In this document: piece after piece, positions 1 through 64,000 of the stretch | How positions within the stretch are numbered: position 1 is the stretch's first letter | Layout: every line of letters starts with the position of its first letter | IMG/VR virus record: IMGVR_UViG_3300009130_000005 | Coordinates: 32,001-96,000 of that record | Origin: a virus | DNA: 64,000 nucleotides | Strand: one strand, 5' to 3' | The notes under the pieces: model-generated | Database searches by the model: none | What the model saw: the letters and a program-made list of their open reading frames with translations, nothing else | What the model was told of the DNA's origin: nothing | Made by a program: the position numbers and the translations under genes

Positions 1-543
1 TTTGGCCTAAGACTAACAGCTTGCGAGGGAACTTCGACTGAAAATAATTGCCATAAAATAATCGTTTTTGCTAAGAATGATTCAGGATGCAAGCTATTAA
101 ACAAGGTATACAGTGAAGCATTCAAAGGGGAGACGCCAGCAATAGACATCAGAAAACTTAAAGAAGTCTGGAACGAAGAAAGCCTAAAGCTTGCGATACC
201 CTTTTATGATTCTTTTATATTTAACAACACAATGTCTTTTGCAAATTGTGTGCCAAGCTTTAATTTTACAAAGCCAACGCTTTTTATAGAGAACAATCAA
301 CTACCATTTGATGGTCTGATCAAGGAAAGGGTAGAGAGGTTTGCGTCTCAAAAAAATCTTGATACAGAAAAAGTAAAGACAATTTATTATAAAAACAGAG
401 AAGACTTTGAGGCATTCCAAACATATAAATGTATTTGCAATAGAACAGGATGGGGAGGAAGGGCCGTATCAATACAAAAGCCAAACTTAGACCATTGCGG
501 TAGTAGAGAATTCTGCCTAGAAAGCTGGAAGGAGCAAGTATGA
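1..543 (+). CDS. PHP domain of DNA polymerase III alpha as a stand-alone ORF (5'-partial)
   Basis: Frame of ORF 232..543 is open back to base 1 (FGLRLTAC...HKIIVFAKNDSGCKLLNKVYSEA, typical DnaE PHP segment). ATGA overlap with the next gene. Confidence 0.7.
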   Translation, partial: FGLRLTACEGTSTENNCHKIIVFAKNDSGCKLLNKVYSEAFKGETPAIDIRKLKEVWNEESLKLAIPFYDSFIFNNTMSFANCVPSFNFTKPTLFIENNQLPFDGLIKERVERFASQKNLDTEKVKTIYYKNREDFEAFQTYKCICNRTGWGGRAVSIQKPNLDHCGSREFCLESWKEQV

Positions 544-6259: not shown

Positions 6260-6657
6260 GGGGGTGTTCTGGATTCGACTGATGTTGGATTCCTGCACCG
6301 CAAGTCGGAGATGCACTTGGCTTCGATACAAATGTGCAAAGCTTTACATGGCGCTAAAAACCGTGTTAGAGCCCTCGGTCTTAAGAACCGTCTCGCTGCA
6401 AAGCGTTTCGGCTTCAAGAGCCGTAAGCTCGCCTTAGCAGCTTAACCTGCTAACCTCTTACCTTTTGACGCAGATAAGGAGGATAAGGGGTCATCGATCT
6501 GCAAAACAGAAAAGGTTTACCTGTTAATAAACTGTAAATAATTGTAACAGGAAGTTCGATGTTAGTATCAACAACTCAAAAAGAAACTAACTAAACTTGT
6601 AGACGTGCTTGATTGAAGGCACTCAGGACGCGGGTTCAACTCCCGCCACCTCCACCA
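6260..6657 (+). ncRNA. ssrA: tmRNA
   Basis: 5' GGGGGTG...GGATTCGAC; 3' GCGGGTTCAACTCCCGCCACCTCCACCA; G3-U70 alanine identity pair; internal tag ORF 6350-6445 ending LALAA*. Confidence 0.95.
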
Positions 6658-17686: not shown

Positions 17687-17896
17687 GGAAGTTCTCGACG
17701 GAGGCTTCCTGTGGGTGACCGAACAAGCCTGTCGTTAGCGGGCTAAGGTATGCAGATTCCCTGTGGTGGGGTAGCAGAGTCCAATCGGATGAGCTAAAGA
17801 CCATATACCGAGTCTAATCTGTGGTTCGAAGTAGGAAAACATTGAACTGATGTTAACGCCGAAAAGTTGGAGGTATTCAGTAGTCCTTCCCCACAC
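17687..17896 (+). ncRNA. Unassigned structured ncRNA (~210 nt)
   Basis: GC-rich stretch with no ORF in the track, between a promoter and a terminator; nested stems (TGTGGG/CCCACA, AGCCTGT/GCGGGCT, GCAGATT/AATCTGT, AACATT/GATGTT). Confidence 0.65.
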
Positions 17897-17903
17897 TTAT
17901 TTT

Positions 17904-38432: not shown

Positions 38433-41400
38433 TATTCATGCGGTATTAGCACTTTTTCAAAAAAAGTGTTGACTTTTACCAAACCTCTGTCATACTTGGT
38501 TACATGATTGATTTTACAAATGAATAGGAAGAATAAATAATTATGCAAGAAATAATAGATAAAATATACGAGCGTATGGACTTCTGTGCAAATGCACATG
38601 GAGCAACGCAAGAAGATGAACACAATTACATTCTTGAGCTAAGTTGCTTGAATGAAGTTTTGGATAAAATAGAGAGATTCCCTTGGAATCATTTTGAAGA
38701 TGAAGCTAACTAAATATCAAAAAGCTCGACTCCTTGAGTATAATTGGGATGTTTATACAACCGAAGATGGTTCTCAAAATTGTGCTTGGATTAGCATCTC
38801 TCCCGAAGATGGCTCAATCTTTGGAGATGTAGTGGAAACTTTGGGCTTGACAGGAGAGGGTAAAGATGTCAAGCTATTGATTGTAGCAACCGCAGAGGAT
38901 ACTGAAGATGAGTAATGCAGTAGATACTTCTTATAGCATATCCGTACCACTTTCAGCAGAAGAGTTGGAAGAAATTTTATATGAAGATAAATCATTTGAG
39001 TGGGTTTTCCCTACAAATGAAAACGAAAATATCAATATAACTATACATATACATCATGGAGAATAAATTAGAAGCAATGAAAAACTTAATAATAAAAACT
39101 GAGTCAGACATAAATGAGGTTACCGAGGCATTGAATGATGCAGGTATTCGTTGCATTGTCTATGAAATGGATGAATATGTTTCGGTATTTGAAAAGCTCG
39201 CTAAACTAAAAGAGCTTGCAGGAGAGGAATAAATTACTATGAGAGCATATCTGATTGAACAACTCAAAGAGCTAGTCAAGTACGAGCAAATAAAGAAGGA
39301 ACACGCTAATGAGATTTTAGAATTATTCGATGAAGAATCGGATGATACTAGCGAACAAACCGCTTTCGAGAAAGCACAACAAGATATGCGAATAGCATTA
39401 CAAGGAGAATGGCAGTAATGAAAATAAAAACTTATGAAGTAGAAATATCAAGCACTACCTATCGCACCTACTATATAGATGCAGAATCCCCAAAAGAAGC
39501 ACAAGCGAGAGCATTTGAAGAAGTAGACGCTGATTGGGAAATAAGCAAGGCATGGAAGCAAAACGCAGAGGTTGCTTTCTGCGAACCTAAAGGTGGAACA
39601 TCCGACATGAGCAACGAGGAATTCGGAAAATACATTCGTGGAGAATAAAATGCTTGACACATCTCAATAACCTGTCATTATAGAAGCATGAAGATAAAAA
39701 ATAAATGGGACGAAGAGTTTGAAGTAAGTGTCGGTGATTGGGTAGGATTCAAATGCGACATTGAACAAATTGGAAGAGTGAAAGAAATTCAAAGAAGAGG
39801 AGCATTGATTATTGAAAACGAAGATGGATTCGATGGAGACTATATCGGTGGAGATACCGAAGCATTGGTTGGATTCGATGAAGTGTGGAAAGAAAGCTAA
39901 TAATGAGAACAACTGAAAGACAATTAAGACAAGGAGAACCAACCATTGACGATATGCGTTGGGACATCGCAGAACACGAAGCAATGAACATGGGTACTAA
40001 ATTACTCATAGAGCTTCTATATCACGGAACAGAAGGGTTAGAGAATATGAATGACTTGGAAGTTCGTGACGAATGGGAAATGTTATTTGGAGATACAGAG
40101 TAATGGGATTGGCACAAGAAATAAATGAAAGACTAGACGCAATGCTTGCATTGGGTAATGACGAAAAAAGCCTAGAAGTTAAGCAAACCTTAATAAAGGA
40201 GCTTAATAAAATAACAGGCAATGGTCAAAATGTAAGAGAAGTGTTCAATAACATTTATTATGTCAATGACATGATGCAAGATAGACTTTTAGTTCAAAAA
40301 GAAAATGAATCAAATAATTATAATAAGGCAAATAAGTGCGACAACTCGCACGAATCAATGAAAGGAAAAATGAAATGAATAATGTAACAAATATAGACTA
40401 CGAGTTGCTTGCAGAGCAAAGAGAAACCCTTCTTAACGCTATTTGGGAAGATGAGCAATCTCCGCTTTGGGGAGTGGTCAATCTACTTGACGCACTTATT
40501 GATGCAGAAGATAGCATCAAGGTAAATCGTTGATGTTCAACAAGTAAAGCTCAAAAGAAAAAAAAGGCTTGACATTACCCAATGACCTGTCATAATGGAT
40601 GGCATGATGAACAAAACAGAATGTAAAGAACAACTTCAACAAGATATAGTTTCTTATCTTGATGGCATGGATGACGAGATTGTTTCCCATGTTTGCAATA
40701 TAGCAATAAGCAACATCAATCAAATTGAAGAGTCAAATGAAGTTGTTCGCCAAACCGAGTTGGACGAGAAATTGTCTCAACTTATATTATCAATAAACAA
40801 GGGAACAGAAACCCTTAACTTAATCGCACAAATTATTAGGAGTAAGTAAGTATGAAAGTAGAAGAAATGTTCGCAGGAAAAGAAGTAGAATTTTTTTACA
40901 AGAAAGATAATTCCATTGTACTAGAAGGAGAGCATATAGGATATGATGTAGAAGTAGGCAATGAGGTTCAGTTGGTTCTGAACGATGACATCTATTGGAA
41001 TCCCGATGCGTCCGTGGAATAGTCTTAATTTTCAAGGAAAATTTGTATTGCTAATGTGCATTGTAAATTTTTTATTCGCAATCTTTTTTGCGGTAAATGG
41101 AAGCTCACTTGCAATACTATCAATTTCTTGTGCAATGCTCTGTGGCATAAGCACATATTCAGATAAATACAAACGATATTAAGTGTAATTATAAGCGAAA
41201 GGAACACACCATGTACTTCAACTATGCAAAAGTAAGATGGGATATATTCTCACCACAAGATATTTACTTCAAAAGCAGTATTCTCACAAGAGGATTGGAA
41301 GATGATATAAATATAATTTCATACAAAAATAAGACCGACTTCCATCGGAACTATACTCACGGAGTTTTTGTCAAATTCAATCATGTAAAAGAAGATTATC

Positions 41401-41786
41401 CAAATGTAGAGATAAATCTTATGGATAGAAGGCAAAGGAAAAATGGGAGCAGACCAATGTATCGCCATCAGTATTTCGATAACCTTGTCTACATTTATAG
41501 CTACCATAAGATGCAAGAATGGGTCAAAGACCCGACAGACCCAACAGGTTGGAAGATGGTAACTAAAGGGCAACCTTTACCTAACGAAGAAGGTTATGCA
41601 ATAGACTTTCACAACTTCCAAGGATACTCTCAAGAGATTTGCCAAGAGCAAATGGACATCGTTTATTCCGTCCGTAACTTCTTGATTGAGAGAATTTTAC
41701 CGATAAAGCAAAAAAAAGTGTTGACAATGGTAGCCTAGTGTGCCATACTTATGGAATAACAATCAAAAACCCGAAAGAAAAAAATT

Positions 41787-44024
41787 ATGATTATTGCACA
41801 AGACAAAGCTAAAAGAATAGTTCAATCGCACGACTTTGATGAAGTCAAATGCACCATTGACGCAGAAGATATGCGTTATGTGGCATCGTTGTTGAGAAAC
41901 AACTATTCCAAACCTATACTTGCGGTCATCCGTGAGATTACTGCAAATGCACTTGACGCTAACCTAGAAGCAGGAGCAAAGAAACGAGCAATCGTAAAAG
42001 TTCCATCTTCTTTTAGCCCTGTTTTCTCTGTAAGAGATTTCGGAGGCGGTTTATCGCAAGAAGATGTATTCGGATTGTATTCTAAGTACGGCAAGTCAAC
42101 CAAGAGAGATTCAAACAACTATATCGGTGCTTTCGGTATAGGTAAGTTTGCTCCACTTTCTTATGGAAACAACTTTACTTGCGTATCCTATCATGGTGGA
42201 AAGAAAACTTCATACGATATTTATGTCAATGACGATGACGATACGAAGATTTCCAAGTTGCATGAAGAACCTAGCAACGAGCCAACAGGCTTGTGCGTAG
42301 AGGTTGCAGTTGCAGATAGTGATGTAGACAAGTTCAAGGAAGAGATTAGGTCTTTCTTCAAGGTCTTTCCAAAAGATGAGCTTCCCGAATTTAAGGGTAT
42401 AGATGAAGAAGATTTCTTCCCTGTTTATGCAAATGCACTAGAAGGCAAGGATTGGTTCTTTGTTGAGCAGAAGAATGACAGGTACTACGGACATAGTTAC
42501 AACTATGGTAGCCAATCGTATGCAATTATGGGTAGAGTTGCCTATCCCCTCGACCCTTCTGCTATCAATTTTGATGGCGAGGATGCAGAGGCATTGCGTG
42601 ACCTAGCTCAATCGCAAGGATTTTATGTGCAATTCCCTATTGGAGACTTGAAACTCCACCATAGTCGTGAATCGCTAGAGTACAACAAACCGACTCAAAA
42701 GAAGATTCTTGAACGCTTGCGTGTGGTCAAGGCTGAAATTGAGGAAATGGCGAAAGAGCGTCTTGAAGGTGCTGAAGATTTGTGGGACGCAAAGTGCAAG
42801 TATGCACAAGTAATGAACGCAATTCCGTATTCATTACAAAATGTTTTTCGCAATAGTTTCTCATGGCAAGGCACTAAAATTACGAGCTTGACTTTCGATA
42901 GACCTTATGGTATGCACGAAAACCTTATCATCAAAGAGTATCGTAAGCGTGATGATGCTAATGCGACAGATGGGTACAAAGTGCAAACCACATCTTGCTC
43001 AAGAGTTATGTGCCAAGTTGACGCATTGCTTGTTATTCAAGATGCTCCAAAGTACGGACTCTCTCTAAGGGCTAGGACTTTATTCAACGAAAATCCTAAT
43101 GTAGATGTTATCTATTCTGTTGAGGCAAAAGATTCTCAAGCAGAAGATTACATAAAGGATGATTGGGACTTTGACTTAATTTTACCTAAAAACAAGATTA
43201 GCTTTGTTAAGGTTGATAAGGCAAAACTCCAACAAGGCACTCGCTCAAGCGGAGAAAGTCGTGCAAGCGTACCTTTGTTTCAGTTTGAAAAGCAGAGTAG
43301 TTGGGGAAACAGGAACTCAGATTTTTGGCTCAATGTAGACAAGAAGCTAGATGAACTTGATTTTTCAGACGATAAGAAGAAGGTTTATGTGGCTATTACT
43401 GCTTACAAGTTGACTGACCATTCCGATTCCTTAGACCAACTGCATACAAAAGTTAAGGCAGTTAAGGAGCATGACGAAGAACTCGTATTGTATGGTGTTC
43501 GCAACAAGGATGTTAAGAAGTTGGACAAGACCGAATGGGTAGAGTTCTACGATTACATGAAGGAAGTTTCTCTTGAATACTGCAAGGAGCATATCGGAGC
43601 AATCAAGAAGGGACGCAAGACGAGAGAGATTGTGAACAATTCTCACAAGTCTGACTCTTGGAGCAAGTTGCAGAGCGTCCTCACGAATGACAATCTGTTC
43701 TCAAGCCTTGACTTAGCCTCAAAGCATCCTCTGCTTGAGCTATACGCTCAATACAAGGCTTGCAAGAACGCTTCTGCTAATGCAGAGTTCAATGCTATGC
43801 TACTCTCTGTTGCAGAGAAGCATCATGCGGAAGAAGTGTCCAAACTCGCTCCTGTCAAGTACACTTGGCAAATGCTTGAAGCTGATTGCAAAGAAATTTG
43901 CGACAAGTACCCTCTGTTGGTCAACATTTCCAATCAAGTTTCCTACTACACAAGGATGAACGAGGACAACTTCGGCAAGAATATTTCCGATTTCATCAAA
44001 TTAGTTGACGAAAATCAAAAATAA
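41787..44024 (+). CDS. rIIA: rIIA-like protein with N-terminal GHKL ATPase domain
   Basis: REITANALDA, VRDFGGG, YGKSTKR, GAFGIG, SRESLEY; followed by an rIIB-like gene. Confidence 0.8.
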   Translation: MIIAQDKAKRIVQSHDFDEVKCTIDAEDMRYVASLLRNNYSKPILAVIREITANALDANLEAGAKKRAIVKVPSSFSPVFSVRDFGGGLSQEDVFGLYSKYGKSTKRDSNNYIGAFGIGKFAPLSYGNNFTCVSYHGGKKTSYDIYVNDDDDTKISKLHEEPSNEPTGLCVEVAVADSDVDKFKEEIRSFFKVFPKDELPEFKGIDEEDFFPVYANALEGKDWFFVEQKNDRYYGHSYNYGSQSYAIMGRVAYPLDPSAINFDGEDAEALRDLAQSQGFYVQFPIGDLKLHHSRESLEYNKPTQKKILERLRVVKAEIEEMAKERLEGAEDLWDAKCKYAQVMNAIPYSLQNVFRNSFSWQGTKITSLTFDRPYGMHENLIIKEYRKRDDANATDGYKVQTTSCSRVMCQVDALLVIQDAPKYGLSLRARTLFNENPNVDVIYSVEAKDSQAEDYIKDDWDFDLILPKNKISFVKVDKAKLQQGTRSSGESRASVPLFQFEKQSSWGNRNSDFWLNVDKKLDELDFSDDKKKVYVAITAYKLTDHSDSLDQLHTKVKAVKEHDEELVLYGVRNKDVKKLDKTEWVEFYDYMKEVSLEYCKEHIGAIKKGRKTREIVNNSHKSDSWSKLQSVLTNDNLFSSLDLASKHPLLELYAQYKACKNASANAEFNAMLLSVAEKHHAEEVSKLAPVKYTWQMLEADCKEICDKYPLLVNISNQVSYYTRMNEDNFGKNISDFIKLVDENQK

Positions 44025-48996: not shown

Positions 48997-49015
48997 AAAA
49001 TCGCCCGCCGATTTT
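48997..49015 (+). repeat. Dispersed palindromic element copy R1
   Basis: AAAATCG-CCCGC-CGATTTT. Confidence 0.85.
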
Positions 49016-52811: not shown

Positions 52812-52830
52812 AAAATCGCCCCACGATTTT
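52812..52830 (+). repeat. Dispersed palindromic element copy R2
   Basis: AAAATCG-CCCCA-CGATTTT. Confidence 0.85.
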
Positions 52831-54476: not shown

Positions 54477-55818
54477 GATGCAAGTATTGAAACAAATTAT
54501 TGAACATTGGGGTTTTGTTGACTCTCAACAATTACCCGAACTAGCAAAGCATTTTCCCGATACTCCGCTTGTTATCAAATGGGGAGCAATGCCAAGAGAG
54601 CAAATCGTTGCATCAAAAGTTGCTGAACGCATCAAAGAGGTTGAGCAATGGAATCAAGACTATGTTCGTGAGGTTTTTATTTGCTCTGAACAATTTCGCA
54701 AGCTCAAAGAAGTTTTTGGGTTGACAGATGCCTCCTAATCTGAGAGAATACTATAATGCAAACAATAGATATCACACCAACTTGGGAGGCTTGCGTCAAG
54801 ATATACATGGCAGTCCTTGAAAATGAAAACGCATCCTTCACAGGAAAAAGAGAAGCGAGAGCAGAACTCATTCGCCTAGCAAAGATAGTAGACAATCAGA
54901 ACGATAAGGCAAAACAAAAGGAGGAAAACTTTCACCCCGATACAAAAGATAACAACCGATACAACAACGCAGATGTTGATGTAGATATGCTAAACCAAAT
55001 GTACAACCAAACTATATAATCATGGGCAAAAAAGCTAGAGAAAAAGGAATACCTAACGCAGAAACGCATAAAGCTCTGCACACAATCGCAAAGAAGTCTT
55101 CTCACGGAGGCAACAAACCATTGGTAGAATCTTTGACTAATCCTAATGTGATGGTCACGCAAAAGGTTCGCAAGGCACAAGAAAGAAGGAGGGCAGTATA
55201 ATGGGAGAATGGGATTCATATATTGATGCAGTTGTCGCAGTAGACGAACTTGGCACTTTACCTCCTTTGGAGTCTGAACCCGAATACGATGCGGATTCTG
55301 ACACATGGGCTTTACACTTTGAATACGAAGACCCTATGATGGGCGGTAACGATATGGTGACCTTGCACTTCGATAAAGAAGAGGATGCAATCTTTACTGC
55401 AAACAAAATTGTAAGCGATAGGCATATCGCAATGTTGGAACTAGAAAGAAAGAAAGCTGAAAAAGTCCTTGACAAACAAGGCTAATTGTGGCATACTATA
55501 TATTATGAAACTGAAAAAGAAAAAGACAAAACTCGAAAACACTATCACTAACCTTCTTGCGCGTGGCACAGCCATTGCAAGTTTTGACTACAACGGAGTT
55601 TCTCGTAATGTAATCATTGGGGCAAACGCATCGTCCCAAGGAGACAGGCAATGGGGGCAAATGTCCAACAAGGCTATTGTTGAACACAAGGGAAAGAAGT
55701 ATCTTTCTGCTCGTGTCAATAACGACATTGGTCATGTCAAGGCATTCTCCCTCGACAAAATTTCCAATTTTCAAGTTGATGGTTCTGTAGTGTAACCGTT
55801 GGTTAGTGGTGTGTTCAT

Positions 55819-55850
55819 ACGGAGGGTCCATTCGGGCCCTCCGTTTTTTT
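55819..55850 (+). terminator. Rho-independent terminator
   Basis: ACGGAGGGTCC-ATTC-GGGCCCTCCGT followed by a T run. Confidence 0.8.
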
Positions 55851-55902
55851 GTATCCCTGCAAATAGGCAGTCATAAGTATTTGCTCTATCGGGGGTTACG
55901 AA

Positions 55903-55921
55903 AAAATCGCCCGCCGATTTC
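55903..55921 (+). repeat. Dispersed palindromic element copy R3
   Basis: AAAATCG-CCCGC-CGATTTC followed by GTGCCAA. Confidence 0.85.
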
Positions 55922-56031
55922 GTGCCAATTTCACAAGTATCTAATGGGTAGGCAGATAGGCTCACAAAAAAAAACACCCGATTAAGCTTTTTTTTCTTGC
56001 AATTACCTCAGATTCTGTCATACTTATAGTT

Positions 56032-56157
56032 ATGAAAGTGAGAGAGATAAAGATAAGAAAGACCATTCTTTTCACCAAGTCTCGCCCACACAAGGTAAAG
56101 AAGAACACACTACATCGCAAACGCAAACACAAGGAGAACCTAAATCATGTATCTTAA
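56032..56157 (+). CDS. Small basic ArfA-like peptide (not in ORF track)
   Basis: MKVREIKIRKTILFTKSRPHKVKKNTLHRKRKHKENLNHVS; own promoter. Confidence 0.5.
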   Translation: MKVREIKIRKTILFTKSRPHKVKKNTLHRKRKHKENLNHVS

Positions 56158-56442
56158 CGAAGAATATAACGAAAACGAAATCACTACCGCACTTGACGCA
56201 AACGAGCAAGCTATGGACTTGGTTTATGAGTTCGCAATCGCTCCAATGGAGAAAGAAATGACAGAAGAACAAGCCTACGCAATCGCTATTGCAGGTGCAA
56301 CCTTGAAGACCATTGCCCAAAAAGCATACGCTTACGAAAAAATGCAAAAAGGTCAAAATTTGCAAAATTAGGGGTTGACAAACGCACGAATTTTTGAGAT
56401 AATTATAACCATAATCAAGATAATCCAACACGAAAAAAAATT

Positions 56443-57195
56443 ATGAATAGACTAAACCTAAACATCTGCGGTGGCGAACATACTAAAGTGGGCTTCGATG
56501 AAGTCTGTGCAGTAGAGACTCCGCAAGCTACTGAAACTTGGCGACCAATCAGCCATAGCTACCTCATCGACAGGGTTCGCACCCATCTTGATGACAATGG
56601 CTACGAGATTGTCGCTGAAAACCACAACCTCGCTCGTTTCGGGCAACGCTACTTTGGATTGTTCCAAGTAAACAACAAGGACAGAGAGCAAGGCGATAGA
56701 GGCACTATCCTCGGACTTCGCAATGCTCACGACAAGTGCTTTCCTGCAGGACTTTGTGCAGGTGACGCTCCTTTCGTTTGCGACAACCTTGTTTTTCACA
56801 ATGAGATTGTCCTTGCTCGTAGGCATACCAAGAACATTATGACTGACCTTCCGCAAGTCATCGCTCGTACCATCGGCAAGTTGTCGGGTATGTGGAACAC
56901 TCAAGACAAGCGGATTGAGTCCTACAAGGACTATGATGTCACCAATGCTCAAGCAAATGACCTTGTCATCCGTGCTTACCAAGCAGGAGCAATCAGCAAG
57001 GCAAAGATTGCTGATGTCGTTGAGCAATGGGAAACTCCCGAACACCCCGAATTCAAGGATAGGAACATGAACTCCTTGTACAATGGGTTTACGGCAGTTC
57101 TCCGTGGCGGTGTCATGCAGTTGCCAAAGCGTTCTGACGCTCTGCACTCTGTTCTTGACTCTGAAGTCGGACTGACTCTCGCAACCAAATCTTAA
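56443..57195 (+). CDS. DUF932/DUF945-family protein
   Basis: T.TW.PISH, FG, GLRN.HDK, FVCDNL, RRHT, LYN.FT. Confidence 0.7.
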   Translation: MNRLNLNICGGEHTKVGFDEVCAVETPQATETWRPISHSYLIDRVRTHLDDNGYEIVAENHNLARFGQRYFGLFQVNNKDREQGDRGTILGLRNAHDKCFPAGLCAGDAPFVCDNLVFHNEIVLARRHTKNIMTDLPQVIARTIGKLSGMWNTQDKRIESYKDYDVTNAQANDLVIRAYQAGAISKAKIADVVEQWETPEHPEFKDRNMNSLYNGFTAVLRGGVMQLPKRSDALHSVLDSEVGLTLATKS

Positions 57196-57531
57196 TCATA
57201 AACCATAGGAATAACTGATATGAAGCATAACAACCTCTCATCTGTTCTCAATAACCTCAAAGGGCGATTCGTTTCGGTTCTTGTCAAGGATGGTGCAAAT
57301 CGCACTTCCTATTCGGCAAAGCTGAAGAGTCACAACTCTGAGGTGGTAACCTTCGTTGATACTAACGAAAGCAAGGGGCGAGTCTTTCGCAAGGTTCGCA
57401 GGTCTGCGGTGCTTGGGCTGAAAAGCGGTAAGCATTCGTTCCGTAGGACGAAAGCCCTGTAAAGGGCAAATAGGCAAATAGCCGACCAAATAGTCCCAAG
57501 GGCGCAAGCCCTTGGGGCTTAGTGGTTTACG

Positions 57532-57550
57532 GAAATCGCCCAGCGATTTT
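57532..57550 (+). repeat. Dispersed palindromic element copy R4
   Basis: GAAATCG-CCCAG-CGATTTT followed by CATGCCAA. Confidence 0.85.
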
Positions 57551-57635
57551 CATGCCAAAGTTTTTTTGAGAAAAGGCTTGACTTATGGCTGACTTCTGTC
57601 ATAATTGTATTCAGTTCTTTTGATAATCAAGTTGT

Positions 57636-57761
57636 GGGCTTGTAGCTTAGTCTGGTCTAGAGCCTTGTCCTCCTTCATCGTGAAATTCTAGATAAATTAG
57701 CGAACGGAGTAATTACCCGTGGAGCAAACAAGAGGCGGGGGTTCAAATCCCTCCAAGCCCT
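57636..57761 (+). ncRNA. tRNA-like RNA with ~50-nt insertion in the anticodon loop
   Basis: Acceptor GGGCTTG/CAAGCCC, D-arm GCTT...GAGC, T-arm GGGGG-TTCAAAT-CCCTC, 57-nt loop; own promoter (TTGACT 57578, CATAAT 57600). Confidence 0.75.
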
Positions 57762-57856
57762 GCTCTTTCAGTAGATGCAAACGCATTGAACAACGAGGCG
57801 TCAGTACACGCCTACAACCCTTCGGGGAGAGAGAAAGAGGTACAACACACAACACT

Positions 57857-57986
57857 TTGGGCATACAACGGACAAGGCTATGGCGAATGAGTTATATCTT
57901 GCCAAGGATAGGAGGCGAAAGCCGTTTGAACTAGCAGTAAGAATAGCAACAAGTCGGTGGGATGCGAGTGGTTGACCAATGCCCAA
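57857..57986 (+). ncRNA. Putative structured ncRNA (~130 nt)
   Basis: Closing stem TTGGGCAT/ATGCCCAA, TGGCGA/TTGCCA stem, GGC-GAAA-GCC tetraloop. Confidence 0.45.
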
Positions 57987-58963
57987 TCTTTTTCAAAAAA
58001 AACCCTTGACAAAAACACATAATCTGTCATACTTATAATCATGAATAACACGGAATCACAATTAGCTTCATTTGAAAATTTGGAATTCAATCAACACCCT
58101 CGCTTTGCTGAAGGCACGGCTATTCAAGCGAGACTCAAGTTTGGGTCGAGAGACCAATTTGAGATTTCAGTCGTCCAAAACATTGGAAGTGGCACAGGCT
58201 TATATGGTCACGAGGATGACAACACTTACGAAGTCGCAATGTGGTTCGATGGAAGAAACACCATGCTTCCCTTATCTCTTTACGACGATGTTCTCGCAGG
58301 ACAATCTCCAAGCGACATCACTCGCCTAATGCATCAAGCACATCTCAACGATTTTGCTTGGGTTACCCTTCTTCACTCTTTGCGAGACGAACATCGCAAG
58401 GAAATGGAGCTTGACAACTAACCTTAACTCTGTCATTATATATGAATTACTCAACCATAGAAGGTTGCATAAGACAATCAACACAAAACAAAATTATGGA
58501 TACACAAAACAACCAATATATAGTTCTCAAGAATGGAGAACCAATGAACATCAAAGGAACGCTTGAGCAAATTACTCATCATGTACGCTTGCTAGAGCAA
58601 GGACTCAATCGACACCTCCAACACTCACCCTATACTATCGGCAAAGCCGATGCAAACTAATTACAAACAAAAAAAGGTATAACTATGAACGAATTCATAA
58701 ATGCGGTAGATAAAATTGTAACGGCTCAACTTGGACTAAGCGTCCATGACTTAGAGGACTTTGCTTTTTGCGATTACTATGACGAAACTTTTGACCCCGA
58801 TGGTTACGACTATCAAAATGCAGTCGAATCCTGTGCGGAAGATTTTCTCGCTGAAGTTGGGAATCTCTTTGTGATGTAGTGATGTGATTAGTCTCTAGGG
58901 CGAAATAGGAAGATGCCAAATACCTACCCTAGTTCGCAAGTCCTTAGGCATCAGGGGCTTGCG

Positions 58964-58982
58964 AAAATCGCCCCGCGATTTT
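58964..58982 (+). repeat. Dispersed palindromic element copy R5
   Basis: AAAATCG-CCCCG-CGATTTT. Confidence 0.85.
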
Positions 58983-59271
58983 TTTAAAGCGTTTTGTAAG
59001 TAATTAGCCTCCAATGCTTTACGAAAGAAAAAAAGTTAGTTTTATGCGTTTTTGGGGTTGACTTAACCCCCTATTTCTGCATAATGGTATATATGAACGC
59101 TAAAGAAAGAATGAATGAATGGAAAAAGCTTCCCGCTAACACTATCCCGTGGGAAACTTTCAAACGCCTAGTGTCTCAGTTCGGAATGGACGAAGGCATA
59201 AAGAAAGCTCAAAAGATAATTGAAAAAAAGGGTTGACTTCACACGAAAATCTGTCATACTAAAGGGATATT

Positions 59272-59994
59272 ATGATAAAACAAACATTGCTCACATCAGG
59301 AAACGCTAAAATTGTCAAGGGCGAAAAACTTGGCTACATTACAAAAGGGCTTCACTTCGCTCCTGCAAACCTTTCGGGGTTTGAGGTTTGCCGTTGGAGA
59401 AGCAAGGGTTGCACAATGGCTTGCCTCAACACAGCAGGTCGTGGACAAATGGACTCTATTCAAAATGCTCGCATCGCAAAGACAAAGCTATTCTTCGAGA
59501 AGCAGTTTGACTTTCTTGCAAAGCTAACAAAAGAGATTGCTTCCACTATCAAGTCAGCAGCCAAGAAAGAAATGCAAGCAGTTTTTCGTTTGAACCTCAC
59601 GAGCGACATTGCATGGGAATCTGTTTTCTTTGATGAAGAAAAGCCTCAAAACATTTTCGACAAGTTTCCCGAAACGAAATTTTATGATTACACTAAGTCT
59701 TTCGGGCGTATGGCTCAATTCCTCAATGGCGAGTTGCCAAGCAATTACCATTTGACTTTCTCAGCTTCCGAGCATAACCAAAAGCTAGTCGAGATGGTTT
59801 TGGAAATGGGGGGTAATGTTGCCGTGGTCTTTCGTGACCAACTGCCTTGTACTTGGAAGGGTTTTGAAGTTGTCAATGGTGATGCAAACGATTTGCGTTT
59901 CCTTGACAAGTCGGGCGTGGTCGTTGGGCTTATCGAAAAAGGTCTTGCCAAAAAGGACGAAACAGGATTCGTACAGGAAGGGGTAAATTCATGA
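59272..59994 (+). CDS. Gene88/GP88-like Cys-motif phage protein
   Basis: N.K..K, LHFAPA, VC...S.GC...CL..AGRG, RLN.TSD, FYDYTK, GD.NDLRFLD. Confidence 0.6.
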   Translation: MIKQTLLTSGNAKIVKGEKLGYITKGLHFAPANLSGFEVCRWRSKGCTMACLNTAGRGQMDSIQNARIAKTKLFFEKQFDFLAKLTKEIASTIKSAAKKEMQAVFRLNLTSDIAWESVFFDEEKPQNIFDKFPETKFYDYTKSFGRMAQFLNGELPSNYHLTFSASEHNQKLVEMVLEMGGNVAVVFRDQLPCTWKGFEVVNGDANDLRFLDKSGVVVGLIEKGLAKKDETGFVQEGVNS

Positions 59995-60233
59995 GTGACT
60001 ATTACGAATCAGCAAAAGGAATAATGATAACGAGAGACCGAGCCTTGCAAGAGATTCGGAATCACAATCTAGAAAACTTTGAAGAATTTTTTGAAGACTT
60101 AGGAGACAGAGAACATTATGATGCACAATCCGTCTTGATTTGGCTAGGATACTAAATAGCCAGTTTTCAGGACATTCAGCAAATAGGCAAATAGCTAGTC
60201 TTGACCTAAGTTACTCAGTAGTAGGCATTTGCG

Positions 60234-60252
60234 AAAATCGCCCCGCGATTTT
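60234..60252 (+). repeat. Dispersed palindromic element copy R6
   Basis: AAAATCG-CCCCG-CGATTTT followed by TATGCCAA. Confidence 0.85.
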
Positions 60253-60666
60253 TATGCCAATCGCCTAAGCTCTTGATTGAAAAGCTGTTAGGAGGGCCAA
60301 ACCCATACCATTGCCAAGATAGCAATGACGGGCCAACCCATAACAAAAACTAATTGTGCTAATTCCATATGATTACCTTTCGTTGAAAACTCCTGCGTTT
60401 TGCTCTTGGAACTTGAAGTGGCTATCGTGGCAACGAGAGCGAGAACCGCCAAGCTCACGAAAGTTTCGAATCTCACGAGAGACTTCAAAGCGAGCTTGCC
60501 AAGCCTTACCCCAAGCGTCAGATTGCTCTTGTAGAGACTTTGAGGAATCCCAAAGGGCGTTGCACTCTCTGTTGAGAGTTTCGAATTTTTTGTTCAATTC
60601 TTTTATTTCTAACATAAGTATAATCTAATCTATTTTTTCGTAAATTGCAAGCAAAAAGTGATAAAG

Positions 60667-60939
60667 TTATTCACATTGCATAGCTTTCATTTCATCTCCA
60701 ATCTCTTTCATGATTCGGGCTTGCTCGTTTTCTTTGTCGAGCTTTGCCTTTTCATGCTTGAGGTCGAAAAGTTGACCTTTCAGATCTCTAAGAGTTCCGC
60801 CAAAAACATCGTTGGCAACTGCGATAGTCATTGCAGTTTCGGGCGTAGCCCTTGCGTTCATGCGATCAAGTGCGTTTTGCATTTCAGCAATTTCAATTTC
60901 CTTAAGGCGAATGTGTTCTTCTATTTTCATCAATTTCAT
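60667..60939 (-). CDS. Hypothetical coiled-coil protein
   Basis: Minus-strand ORF with its own promoter; ends in CE*. Confidence 0.55.
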   Translation of the reverse strand: MKLMKIEEHIRLKEIEIAEMQNALDRMNARATPETAMTIAVANDVFGGTLRDLKGQLFDLKHEKAKLDKENEQARIMKEIGDEMKAMQCE

Positions 60940-60990
60940 ATATATAATGTAGCAGAGTTAGTTAGTAATTGCAAGCAAAATCGTATCAAG

Positions 60991-61095
60991 TTATTCACAA
61001 TCTTTCTTGTGCTTAACCTTGCGTGAGTATTTGGACTTGTCCTTGTGAGGGCGAGCCTTAGTGAAAACGATTGGGATTCTTACCTTAACTTTCAT
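60991..61095 (-). CDS. Small basic ArfA-like peptide (not in ORF track)
   Basis: MKVKVRIPIVFTKARPHKDKSKYSRKVKHKKDCE; paralog of 56032..56157. Confidence 0.5.
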   Translation of the reverse strand: MKVKVRIPIVFTKARPHKDKSKYSRKVKHKKDCE

Positions 61096-61184
61096 ATATA
61101 GAATATAGCATATAAAGTTAGCTTTGTCAAATTCTTTTTTCAATTATTTTGCAATGCAAACCTCTGACTATCAAAGGCTTAGCC

Positions 61185-61203
61185 GAAATCGGCGGGCGAT
61201 TTT
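61185..61203 (-). repeat. Dispersed palindromic element copy R7 (inverted)
   Basis: GAAATCG-GCGGG-CGATTTT. Confidence 0.85.
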
Positions 61204-61471
61204 CGACTCAGAAGTCGTGCTGGGCGTGGTAGCCGTAGTCGATGTCCTCAGACTCCTCGAAGTCGAGGAGGGCAACCCTGTCCTGCAGGTCACCGATTTC
61301 GTTGCGAATCGCAACTCGGTCAGCAACCGAAAGGACGCAGTCCTTAAGGGTTTCGTGAAGGATGGAGATTTCTTTGAGCATTTCTGATTTAGTCATACAT
61401 ACAACATACCCAAGAAACAGGCAAAAGTCAAGAAAAACTTTCAACTATTTTATGGACTTATTCTATCAGGA

Positions 61472-61490
61472 AAAATCGCCCGCCGATTTC
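61472..61490 (+). repeat. Dispersed palindromic element copy R8
   Basis: AAAATCG-CCCGC-CGATTTC followed by GTGCCAA. Confidence 0.85.
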
Positions 61491-61730
61491 GTGCCAAAAA
61501 CTTTTTTGCTAATTTCATCATTTTTTGCTTGCGTTTACCTTGCTTTCTGTCATTATATAGGGATGAACACAACAAGAAAACCTCTAACCTTAGATTATAC
61601 AAAATGGACATCCTAACAATTATTGCTCTTACGATCATTCTTTTTCGAGAAATTCAAAATTTTTAGTTGACAGAACTTAAAAACTAGTCTAGTATCATAT
61701 ACAGAATCAAGATTGCTAACCTAAACAAAA

Positions 61731-62369
61731 ATGAACATTGCACAAACTATTGATCCCAAACTCATCGAAAACTCCCTCAACTCTGTTGCAACCAATGGGG
61801 TAACGCATCACGGCTACGCTTTTGAAGAGTTTCTTATTCTCGCCCTTGGATTTACCGAGGAAGATGGCACAACCTACCGATCCGTCAAGCAAGGTGGAAC
61901 TCAACTTCACAACCAAGATTTCGACATTCCTGCCGAGGTTGTCGCTCGCAATCCAATCATTCCCCAAAGTCTCCAAGGGAATTGGTCGGTTAAGGCTTGC
62001 GAACATGGCAAGACGATTGGCTTAGGCATGGCAAGCAATCAGTTTGACGCATGGGCTAAGGATGGCATCGTGCAAGCAATCGCATTCTACAAGAAAGAAG
62101 GTGATCGCAAGGTGGTAACTCATTTCTCAATCCATCGCATCGAGCCATCCGCAAAGCTATGGGGCAACCTCACAAAGGAAAAGATTGCCGAGATCGACCC
62201 AATGGTTCGCAAGGACAAGTCGATCACATGGTCAAAAGAGCAAACCAAAAAGCTCAACAGGTCAGCAAACGGCATGATTGGGTTGCGTAACATTTCAAGA
62301 GAAAAGACCAACTCAAGAAACCTTCAATGCTACATGACTTTTTCCAATTATATGCAATTAGTTGCTTGA
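61731..62369 (+). CDS. Hypothetical protein, possible restriction-endonuclease-like fold
   Basis: HG..FE, D.DI, SVK pattern; weak. Confidence 0.4.
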   Translation: MNIAQTIDPKLIENSLNSVATNGVTHHGYAFEEFLILALGFTEEDGTTYRSVKQGGTQLHNQDFDIPAEVVARNPIIPQSLQGNWSVKACEHGKTIGLGMASNQFDAWAKDGIVQAIAFYKKEGDRKVVTHFSIHRIEPSAKLWGNLTKEKIAEIDPMVRKDKSITWSKEQTKKLNRSANGMIGLRNISREKTNSRNLQCYMTFSNYMQLVA

Positions 62370-62400
62370 CAAAAACCCTAGAATCTGAGAGAATACAATT

Positions 62401-62646
62401 ATGCAAAACACTACTACATACAACGGATGGAAGAATCACGCCACTTGGAATGTCGCACTTTGGATTGGTGGCGACCAAGGACTCTACGAGTTCGCCAAGG
62501 AATGCGAAAGCTACAACGATTTTGTGGAGCAACTCCGTGAGGTTTCGGGTGATAGCTCTATCGGATACCAAACCCCCGACAGGGTAGCTTGGAACGATTC
62601 GGGCATTGACATTCCCGAGCTAGACGAGTACATCGCAAACCTCTAA
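62401..62646 (+). CDS. Conserved phage hypothetical protein
   Basis: YNGW.N.ATWNV.LW, TPD.V.W. Confidence 0.6.
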   Translation: MQNTTTYNGWKNHATWNVALWIGGDQGLYEFAKECESYNDFVEQLREVSGDSSIGYQTPDRVAWNDSGIDIPELDEYIANL

Positions 62647-62673
62647 CACTCAAAGCCTTACGCGATTGGCACA

Positions 62674-62692
62674 GAAATCGCGGGGCGATTTT
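62674..62692 (-). repeat. Dispersed palindromic element copy R9 (inverted)
   Basis: TGGCACA followed by GAAATCG-CGGGG-CGATTTT. Confidence 0.85.
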
Positions 62693-63635
62693 TAATCGAT
62701 TTTTTTTTGCGCATTTCTTTGCCATTCAAGGGGTTATGCAATATTTTTGCACGAGATTGCATTTTTGGGCATTTTTTCTCCGCGAAGGGTGAAAGTTTTT
62801 TTGTTTTTCTATTAGTTGTATATCAAGGACTTATGACAATTTAAGGTAGCTGAATACGAATTTGCTTGCGGTTTTGTCAATTTCTGTCATACTGTATTAC
62901 ATGATTAAGATTAAGAAAGTAACCCCAAAGTTCACGAAAGGCGATGTCCTTATTTCACGAGACAACAAAGTCTTTCAATTCATCGAGGCAGTCGAGCATG
63001 ACACGCTTGGCACGATTGCCAAAGTTCGCCCTTACAGGACAAACCGAGAAGTCGGTATCCGTTTCGAGGATGTAAAACTTCATCCGTTTTTTTCTTAATT
63101 TAGCCCTTGACAGGAACCCCTTTTATCTCTAGTATTACAATCATGACAGAATCACAAAGACTCGAACTCATCGCTAACGCAGTAGCTTCCGCCAACAAGG
63201 TCGCTCCACAGTTTCAAGGACTCCTTGACGAGCTAAAGGCTGAAAAGCTCGCTGAGGACTTAGTTCTCGAACATGGTACTCAACACGCCTCGAAGGAGGA
63301 CATTGAAGAGGAGTTTGTCTCCCTCGATGCAGTCGAGTCCGACAAGGACGACATTGACGAAGATGACGAGAACGTTGTCGATATGGATTTCGTCAGCGAG
63401 TCCATGCGTGAAATTTTCAATTCCTAACCACTAACAGAAAGGCAATCATGTATATTCTCAAAAGTATTCTCAACCAAGCGGGCGCCGTTTGGCAAGTCGA
63501 ATCCATTGCCATGCGCAAGGTAGAGGCCGAAAGGCTTCTCAAGCGTAGGCTTTCAACCAATGACGGTTCTCGCCGTTACGGGTTGTTTCCCGCTTCATAA
63601 ACCCTTAAGACTTAGCCACTTATGAAAGTGGCACA

Positions 63636-63654
63636 GAAATCGCGGGGCGATTTT
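63636..63654 (-). repeat. Dispersed palindromic element copy R10 (inverted)
   Basis: TGGCACA followed by GAAATCG-CGGGG-CGATTTT. Confidence 0.85.
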
Positions 63655-64000
63655 CGCTAACCCCTTGGACATCAGTAAGTTAAGCCCTAAAAAAAGATAA
63701 CTTTCTTCATTTTTTTTTGCAATAGCCCTTGACAAAAGGGGTTTCCTGTGCTATATTATATACATGATTAAGAATAAAACTAGACTCATCGAGATTCACG
63801 AATGGACTTCATTCATCTCTGTCAAGATTCACGAAGATGGAGATTACCCACGGGTTCGCTCCGCAAGTACTCTCAAGTACTTCAACGAGATTCTGAAGGA
63901 TGAGCTTTCGCACGCCCGTTCTCTTGGTTACGAGCCACAAATCAAACGCTCAGGCGTTGGCAAGTTTGGCGGTATCAAGTACAAAGACTTGCACAAACTA

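Follow-up and report, generated by a model that had tools for sequence, protein, structure and literature searches.

The element described here recurs between small genes of an uncultured marine phage and combines a palindrome, AAATCG-N5-CGATTT, with a box that resembles the -24/-12 promoters of sigma-54 (RpoN). We analyzed 64,000 bases (hereafter the window), which span positions 32001-96000 of the 116,466-bp IMG/VR virus record IMGVR_UViG_3300009130_000005 (37% GC, estimated to be 76% complete); all coordinates are those of the window unless marked as genome. The region that holds the elements is made up of small genes, each equipped with its own TTGACA-N17-TAnnnT promoter, and their ATG often lies only a few bases past the -10. 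On a crude, ATG-only map of open reading frames (ORFs), which we also read to judge how the boxes are oriented to genes, the elements are confined to the intergenic gaps.

A palindrome with and without a TGGCA box

The palindrome occurs 10 times in the window and 12 times in the whole record. Eight of these 12 copies carry a box and four do not, and all six boxes of the window overlap a palindrome copy. The two further boxes that bring the record's total to eight lie just beyond the window's end, at genome 96827 and 98260, both on the plus strand. The pattern TGGCAYNNNNNYSGC (TGGCAY-N5-YSGC) matches the window exactly six times, compared with a mean of 0.34 matches in 100 dinucleotide shuffles, none of which reached six. 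Because the boxes are copies of one repeat, this statistic supports only the reality of the repeat and not independent selection on each box. A first-pass annotation, made from the letters alone, had listed the same six sites, and their coordinates, strands and sequences all proved correct.

The boxes fall into two subtypes that differ in their offset from the palindrome. In subtype X, TGGCA lies 2 nt from the arm AAATCGGC. The window contains two such boxes, both on the minus strand, at 55913-55927 (TGGCACG AAAT CGGC, 2 nt from the palindrome 55904-55920) and at 61482-61496 (at the palindrome 61473-61489). In subtype Y, TGGCA lies 3 nt from the arm AAATCGC. Four boxes share this arrangement, namely 57543-57557 (TGGCATGA AAAT CGC, 3 nt from the palindrome 57533-57549) and 60245-60259 (at the palindrome 60235-60251) on the minus strand, and 62667-62681 (at the palindrome 62675-62691) and 63629-63643 (at the palindrome 63637-63653) on the plus strand. 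Despite the difference between 2 and 3 nt, the distance GG-N10-GC is held in all six boxes, just as the first-pass annotation had claimed when it described the spacing as compensated. The palindrome arms, in turn, stand 5 nt apart in both subtypes, so that box and palindrome obey two different rulers.

The other four palindromes of the window stand without a box. They lie at 48998-49014 (with a TTGACA hexamer 9 nt away, on the minus strand), at 52813-52829 (with one mismatch), at 58965-58981 and at 61186-61202, the last within a cluster of minus-strand genes. Conservation of the repeat extends past box and palindrome into a loosely conserved block, (T)AAAC..TTGAT..ACTTA, on the palindrome's far side. 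This block matches WATCAA-N4-TTR in places and is often followed by the GC-rich terminator hairpin of the upstream gene.

Relative to the neighboring genes, the boxes point in either direction. The minus-strand box at 55913-55927 faces backward onto the plus-strand gene 55469-55795, at its 3' end and terminator, and the minus-strand box at 61482-61496 precedes the cluster of small minus-strand genes (about 60288-61444) and shares its orientation. The boxes at 62667-62681 and 63629-63643 are each co-oriented with the next plus-strand gene; the sigma-70-like promoter of that gene follows about 190 nt further on in the first case, and its -35 lies at 63729 in the second. Overall, between about 20 and about 190 nt separate an element from the sigma-70-like -35 that comes next. 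The count of three antisense boxes in the window, given by the first-pass annotation, agrees with our reading of the ORF map. GC skew revealed no clear origin at the place where box orientation flips.

Could the palindrome simply be an RNA hairpin, that is a weak bidirectional terminator or processing site, with TGGCA as an incidental flank? Copies with 7-bp arms indeed have folding energies of -10 to -17 kcal/mol and z-scores as low as -3.8, their stems are flanked by A-runs and T-runs, and one copy (62673-62693) is terminator-like by score. However, five of the 10 copies in the window fold no better than shuffled sequence (z > -1.3), and the hairpin is absent from the minimum-energy fold in three of the four AAATCGGC/AAATCGCCCGC-type copies and appears only weakly in the fourth (61460-61505; -7.0 kcal/mol, z 0.42). 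Moreover, several copies follow directly after a separate strong terminator hairpin, their orientation to transcription is mixed, and an RNA role would leave the spacing rule unexplained. We consider this explanation highly improbable.

Box geometry across related phages

Scanning viral contigs with the palindrome, together with a protein scan using the neighboring DUF932-like gene, identified five close relatives (G001-G004 and G011) with syntenic regions. Together with the studied record (G000), they form a six-record set. Among isolated phages, a megablast search with window 55000-64000 gave no match, and tblastn with DnaE, rIIA and a GP88-like protein returned only distant relatives of less than 50% identity, so that the host is not inferable from isolates. 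In the six records, we counted palindromes with at most one mismatch and with GC-rich centers. Two data sets were used: 53 palindromes with 106 arms were tested for spacing, and 36 boxes and 47 palindromes were tabulated by position. The first palindrome of the array is boxless and has a TTGACA 9 nt off on the same side in G000 (window 48998), G001 (37443), G003 (36030) and G004 (132).

Of the 106 arms, 43 have a TGGCA within 0-7 nt, and every one of these 43 keeps GG-N10-GC. A spacing of 2 nt occurs at 25 arms, all of them AAATCGGC, and a spacing of 3 nt at 18 arms, all of them AAATCGC, with no other combination anywhere in the six records. The association of spacing with arm type gives a Fisher p of 1.6e-12, or of 1.3e-7 on the 26 distinct strings, both values being inflated by shared ancestry. 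The spacing that the first-pass annotation had noticed in the window is thus kept in homologous copies from relatives, including one compensated switch of subtype.

This switch is found at the orthologous site that follows a pair of genes for 250-aa and 80-aa proteins, where the box 57543-57557 lies in the window. At this site, G000 has type Y with a spacing of 3, the spacer TGA and the center CTGGG; G001, G003, G004 and G011 have type X with a spacing of 2 and loops that start with GC. Sequence conservation at the site ends exactly at the edge of TTGGCA. Because the CTGGG center and the TGA spacer are unique within G000, simple copying from elsewhere in G000 does not explain the switch.

Tabulated in the sigma-54 frame, the 36 boxes have an invariant G at -13 and an invariant C at -12, followed by variable -11 and -10 positions. 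On the -24 side, position -27 is T in 30 boxes, position -21 is a pyrimidine throughout (26 C, 10 T), and position -20 is a purine in all but one box (21 G, 14 A, one T), in line with the extended -24 consensus (Y)TGGCAC(G/A). Tabulated in the palindrome frame, position 8 is invariant only if position 7 is a G, for which the palindrome alone does not account.

The surroundings of the elements suggest shuffling of cassettes. The elements lie only between cassettes, the gene content between them varies among relatives, and many contigs stop at element edges. In DNA contigs of other marine samples, window 55853 is joined to 61186 (an element), skipping 5.3 kb, and 58016 is joined to 63136 at sigma-70-like promoters, skipping 5.1 kb, in three of four runs. 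These joints look like cassette shuffling in natural populations. The element may then be mainly a boundary for recombination or mobility, in the manner of the promoter early stem-loop (PeSL) cassettes of T4-type phages, with a box that is kept for shuffling and not read. Homologous recombination, however, requires identity and not a compensated GG-N10-GC geometry over two subtypes; shuffling accounts for the repetition of the element and not for its geometry. As the main role of the element, a mobility boundary appears distinctly unlikely to us. It would also be compatible with recognition of the box by sigma-54 and no replacement for it.

A candidate docking site for sigma-54 holoenzyme

With moderate confidence, we favor a reading in which TGGCAY-N8-GC is a candidate docking site for the sigma-54 (RpoN) holoenzyme of the host, embedded in a cassette-boundary element. 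According to this reading, which is drawn from sequence comparison, the multi-copy intergenic element would mark the borders of one-gene cassettes in the early/accessory region of the phage. The -24 half of the site would be canonical (T-TGGCA-Y-R), and the -12 half would be reduced to the invariant GC doublet, which would be provided by the inner end of the separately conserved palindrome AAATCG-N5-CGATTT. The palindrome itself probably binds another protein. We infer that holoenzyme binds these degenerate predicted sites.

Canonical sites of this kind are present in the same phages. An hsp20 gene (PF00011, 1.2e-15) lies on the minus strand at genome 99476-99889, 3.5 kb past the window's end. 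It is leaderless, and 12 nt before its ATG stands TTGGCACGTATATTGCA, which has the canonical form TTGGCACG-N4-TTGCA. The pattern TGGCA[CT]G-N4-[TCA]TGCA, followed by 11-12 nt and then the ATG, is found upstream of hsp20 in all five records G000-G004; its distance to the orthologous ATG is kept, the spacer differs and the flanks are unrelated. Judged by its letters, this pattern is the footprint of a textbook sigma-54 promoter, and the predicted promoter is leaderless like the sigma-70 genes of the phage. A search by eye for an activator site common to the regions upstream of hsp20 yielded TGTCTCTA-like words in about four of the five and nothing firm. In G000 as a whole, TGGCAC-N5-TTGC occurs three times versus 0.13 expected. 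Besides the hsp20 site, these are two perfect TGGCAC-N5-TTGCA boxes at window 241-255 (minus strand) and 55564-55578 (plus strand), one of them within an ORF and neither with a counterpart in the scans of the relatives; as promoters, these two are unproven.

A more distant relative (G010; 36.5% GC, with a DUF932-like protein that is 52% identical) contains seven TGGCAY-N6-TGC sites versus one for the reversed control. Three of the seven belong to one repeat, TGGCACG-N4-NTGCT followed by GGGGAGGCGGGGCCCC, a G-rich dyad. As read from the ORF map, these repeat boxes lie between cassettes and are directed back at the 3' end of a neighboring gene. G010 also has a canonical TTGGCACAATATTTGCT box 15 nt before ORF 41312-42556, which we take, from its N-terminus only, to be ammonium-transporter-like (amt-like). 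The G010 repeat thus represents a second lineage with sigma-54 boxes at cassette borders, although here the -12 is canonical and the dyad is another one.

Several features of the phage repeat weigh against recognition by sigma-54. First, position -14 is never T in the 36 boxes (C in 16, G in 20), so that the extended -12 consensus TTGC(A/T) is unmatched; the first-pass annotation had cautioned that the -12 is not TTGC, and its caution applies to every tabulated box. At -11, 30 of the 36 boxes have G or C and only six have A or T. Second, a G-run follows the GC doublet in the repeat boxes, whereas TGC[AT] is retained in the hsp20 and amt-like promoters, with AT-rich sequence downstream of it. 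Third, relative to the gene that they face on the ORF map, 18 boxes are antisense, 17 are sense and one is unclear. Fourth, of the 47 palindromes, three are flanked by two boxes that face each other and 14 by none, which makes the palindrome the constant part of the element. All 14 X arms that lack a box likewise have a C8 after their G7, which somewhat weakens the argument from spacing. Finally, among 135 sigma-54 sites mapped in E. coli by chromatin immunoprecipitation sequencing (PMC4591121, Tables 1-2), the -14 position, counted by eye, is C in seven, including the glnAp2 promoter, and G in none. Within those tables, subtype Y therefore has precedent and subtype X (20 of 36 boxes) has none.

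Most of these features would suit an extended operator, TGGCA-(2/3)-AAATCG-N5-CGATTT-(2/3)-TGCCA, in which TGGCA is the outer half-site for a phage or host protein other than sigma-54. The -24/-12 likeness would then have arisen by chance, as two repeat subtypes were propagated through descent and recombination. TGGCA stands on both sides of the palindrome in 3/47 copies and on either side elsewhere, 14/47 copies lack it, the -12 half is without the consensus T in every copy, boxless X arms have the same G7-then-C8 sequence (14/14), and orientation to genes is about 50:50 on the ORF map, all of which speak for an operator. By contrast, a single protein that touches both TGGCA and AAATCG should not accept two spacings, and the spacing co-varies with the position of the GC doublet in 43 of 43 cases, including the compensated switch at the orthologous site. 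In addition, the T before TGGCA and the Y-then-R after it match the sigma-54 -24 element as well as the hsp20 promoters of the same phages, and the distant relative G010 repeats boxes that have a canonical -12 and a different dyad. We regard the operator as the main rival to sigma-54 docking, and as a real though minor possibility.

Alone among bacterial sigma factors, sigma-54 occupies DNA in a silent state until an ATPase triggers transcription. Taking the mixed orientation of the boxes together with the lack of a -14 T and of a -11 A/T and with the G-run, we lean toward an orientation-tolerant, stable closed complex that would serve as a roadblock or insulator at cassette boundaries, over productive promoters. 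As a secondary possibility, a host activator may fire the predicted sites as weak outward promoters. A stronger proposal, which we hold to be doubtful, is that the sigma-54 holoenzyme would not transcribe at cassette boundaries but would stay on the DNA there as a structural block. The perfect -24 half, the bare GC and the G-run would trap the enzyme in a closed complex that is unable to open. The trapped complex would insulate one-gene cassettes in either orientation and, at high genome copy number, would act as a sink for sigma-54.

Docking of sigma-54 at the repeat would call for a host that supplies the factor. We found neither rpoN nor a true enhancer-binding protein in the 10 phage records searched, all but one of which are incomplete, and this also counts against sigma-54 recognition. 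Matches to PF00158 occur only in the ClpC-like AAA+ frames (817-832 aa) of G000 and G013, with none in the other eight records; the rpoN or bacterial enhancer-binding protein homolog that the first-pass annotation had looked to in the phage genome did not appear. As a separate observation, a 276-aa ORF at genome 109637-110467 (plus strand) has a weak match to Sigma70_r2 (2.2e-4, below the cut-off) and may encode a phage sigma-like factor.

A clue to the host comes from the DUF1549/DUF1553 and DUF1501 genes of the record (genome 8357-11757), which we take to be typical of Planctomycetota and Verrucomicrobiota. The best species-genome matches of the phage DUF1501 protein, at about 50% identity, are metagenome-assembled genomes (MAGs) of Verrucomicrobiales/Akkermansiaceae, and Planctomycetota come next with 31-38%. 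These genes suggest Verrucomicrobiota as the likeliest host phylum, and we infer an rpoN-positive host from the Planctomycetes-Verrucomicrobia-Chlamydiae (PVC) group. The rpoN gene (PF04552) is present in all five best-matching Verrucomicrobiales genomes and in 120 of 121 sampled Verrucomicrobiota genomes. An rpoN-bearing host would be in line with the predicted phylum. The genomes closest by DUF1501 look GC-rich, as judged from the matched strings, compared with 37% GC in the phage; this is one more point on the negative side and indicates that these MAGs are not themselves the host.

In the five Verrucomicrobiales genomes, TTGGCACG-N6-GC is not enriched, with 51 matches versus 51 for the reversed control (25 of the 51 have T at -14), so that a host -12 consensus is not definable from those genomes. 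The phage Hsp20 protein found a single weak relative, in one of the five. Sigma-54 control of chaperone and protease genes has been predicted in Planctomycetota and Bacteroidota (PMC12316311), and a sigma-54 promoter before the phage hsp20 would fit a host that runs its heat-shock genes through sigma-54. The available portion of that work deals with cellular genes and contains no phage repeats; here, the promoter belongs to a phage hsp20.

Taken together, the sigma-54-type recognition put forward by the first-pass annotation is in keeping with the spacing preserved in relatives, with the hsp20 promoter and with rpoN in the candidate phylum, and is at odds with the non-canonical -12 half and with the lack of rpoN or an activator in the phage records searched. 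We regard that proposal as partly supported; the promoter, roadblock and decoy roles that the annotation suggested are candidate functions.

The window also has six Rfam matches (a tmRNA, a manA motif and four tRNA-like), none of them at a repeat element. The one-piece tmRNA (6260-6657, plus strand, 132 bits) adjoins a ClpC-like gene, and the manA RNA motif (83 bits) lies at 17687-17899 on the plus strand. A tRNA-like sequence at 57636-57761 (plus strand; Rfam 43.7 bits) has a long insertion, was not called by ARAGORN and follows a sigma-70-like promoter at 57578.

Comparison with known systems

To our knowledge, hardly any use of sigma-54 by a virulent phage has been documented. Promoters for sigma-54 and intergenic cassettes that shuffle in phages have each been described on their own, and we did not find a repeat of sigma-54-type sites at cassette borders described: our literature searches turned up no arrays of such sites at phage cassette borders and no structural use of sigma-54 by a virus. 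If the sites bind holoenzyme, a widespread marine phage group would link the organization of its early region to a stress-type transcription route of its host, its purpose being either the timing of gene expression or the isolation of gene cassettes from one another. The compensated geometry of the two subtypes amounts to a set of ready-made mutants, and cloned elements allow a direct test.

A PeSL unit consists of a terminator stem-loop and a sigma-70 early promoter. Like the PeSL cassettes described for T4-type phages (PMC2839356, PMC4122927), as far as the available parts of these reports go, the phage repeat is a composite intergenic motif that recurs among small early genes with sigma-70-type promoters of their own and appears tied to the gain, loss and swapping of cassettes. 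Unlike a PeSL, the repeat joins a palindrome to a sigma-54-type box, occurs in either orientation and leaves the sigma-70 promoter outside its conserved core. It does not form a fused unit of terminator and sigma-70 promoter, as its hairpin is unstable in half of the copies and its distance to the -35 is variable.

The phage boxes share with the -24/-12 promoters of E. coli the T-TGGCA-Y-R sequence, the GC at -13/-12 and the exact GG-N10-GC distance. Subtype Y comes particularly close to glnAp2, TTGGCACAGATTTCGCT, a confirmed strong sigma-54 promoter of E. coli with TCGC at -12 (PMC4591121, Table 1): the two differ at three of 17 positions and have the unusual TCGC in common. Unlike bacterial sigma-54 promoters, the phage boxes lack the -14 T, have mostly G at -11 and contain, from -19 to -3, a core that is a conserved palindrome. 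They also differ in being multi-copy and carried by a virus, with no enhancer site or activator identified. A further parallel is offered by the non-promoter sigma-54 sites of E. coli and Salmonella, where the holoenzyme is bound inactive, often antisense to genes or distant from them, and for which roles as roadblocks or in interference have been discussed (PMC4591121). In the part of that report available to us, each such site occurs once, the sites are dispersed, and most have a low occupancy; the phage site type, by contrast, is conserved and recurs in 8-9 copies per genome at cassette boundaries.

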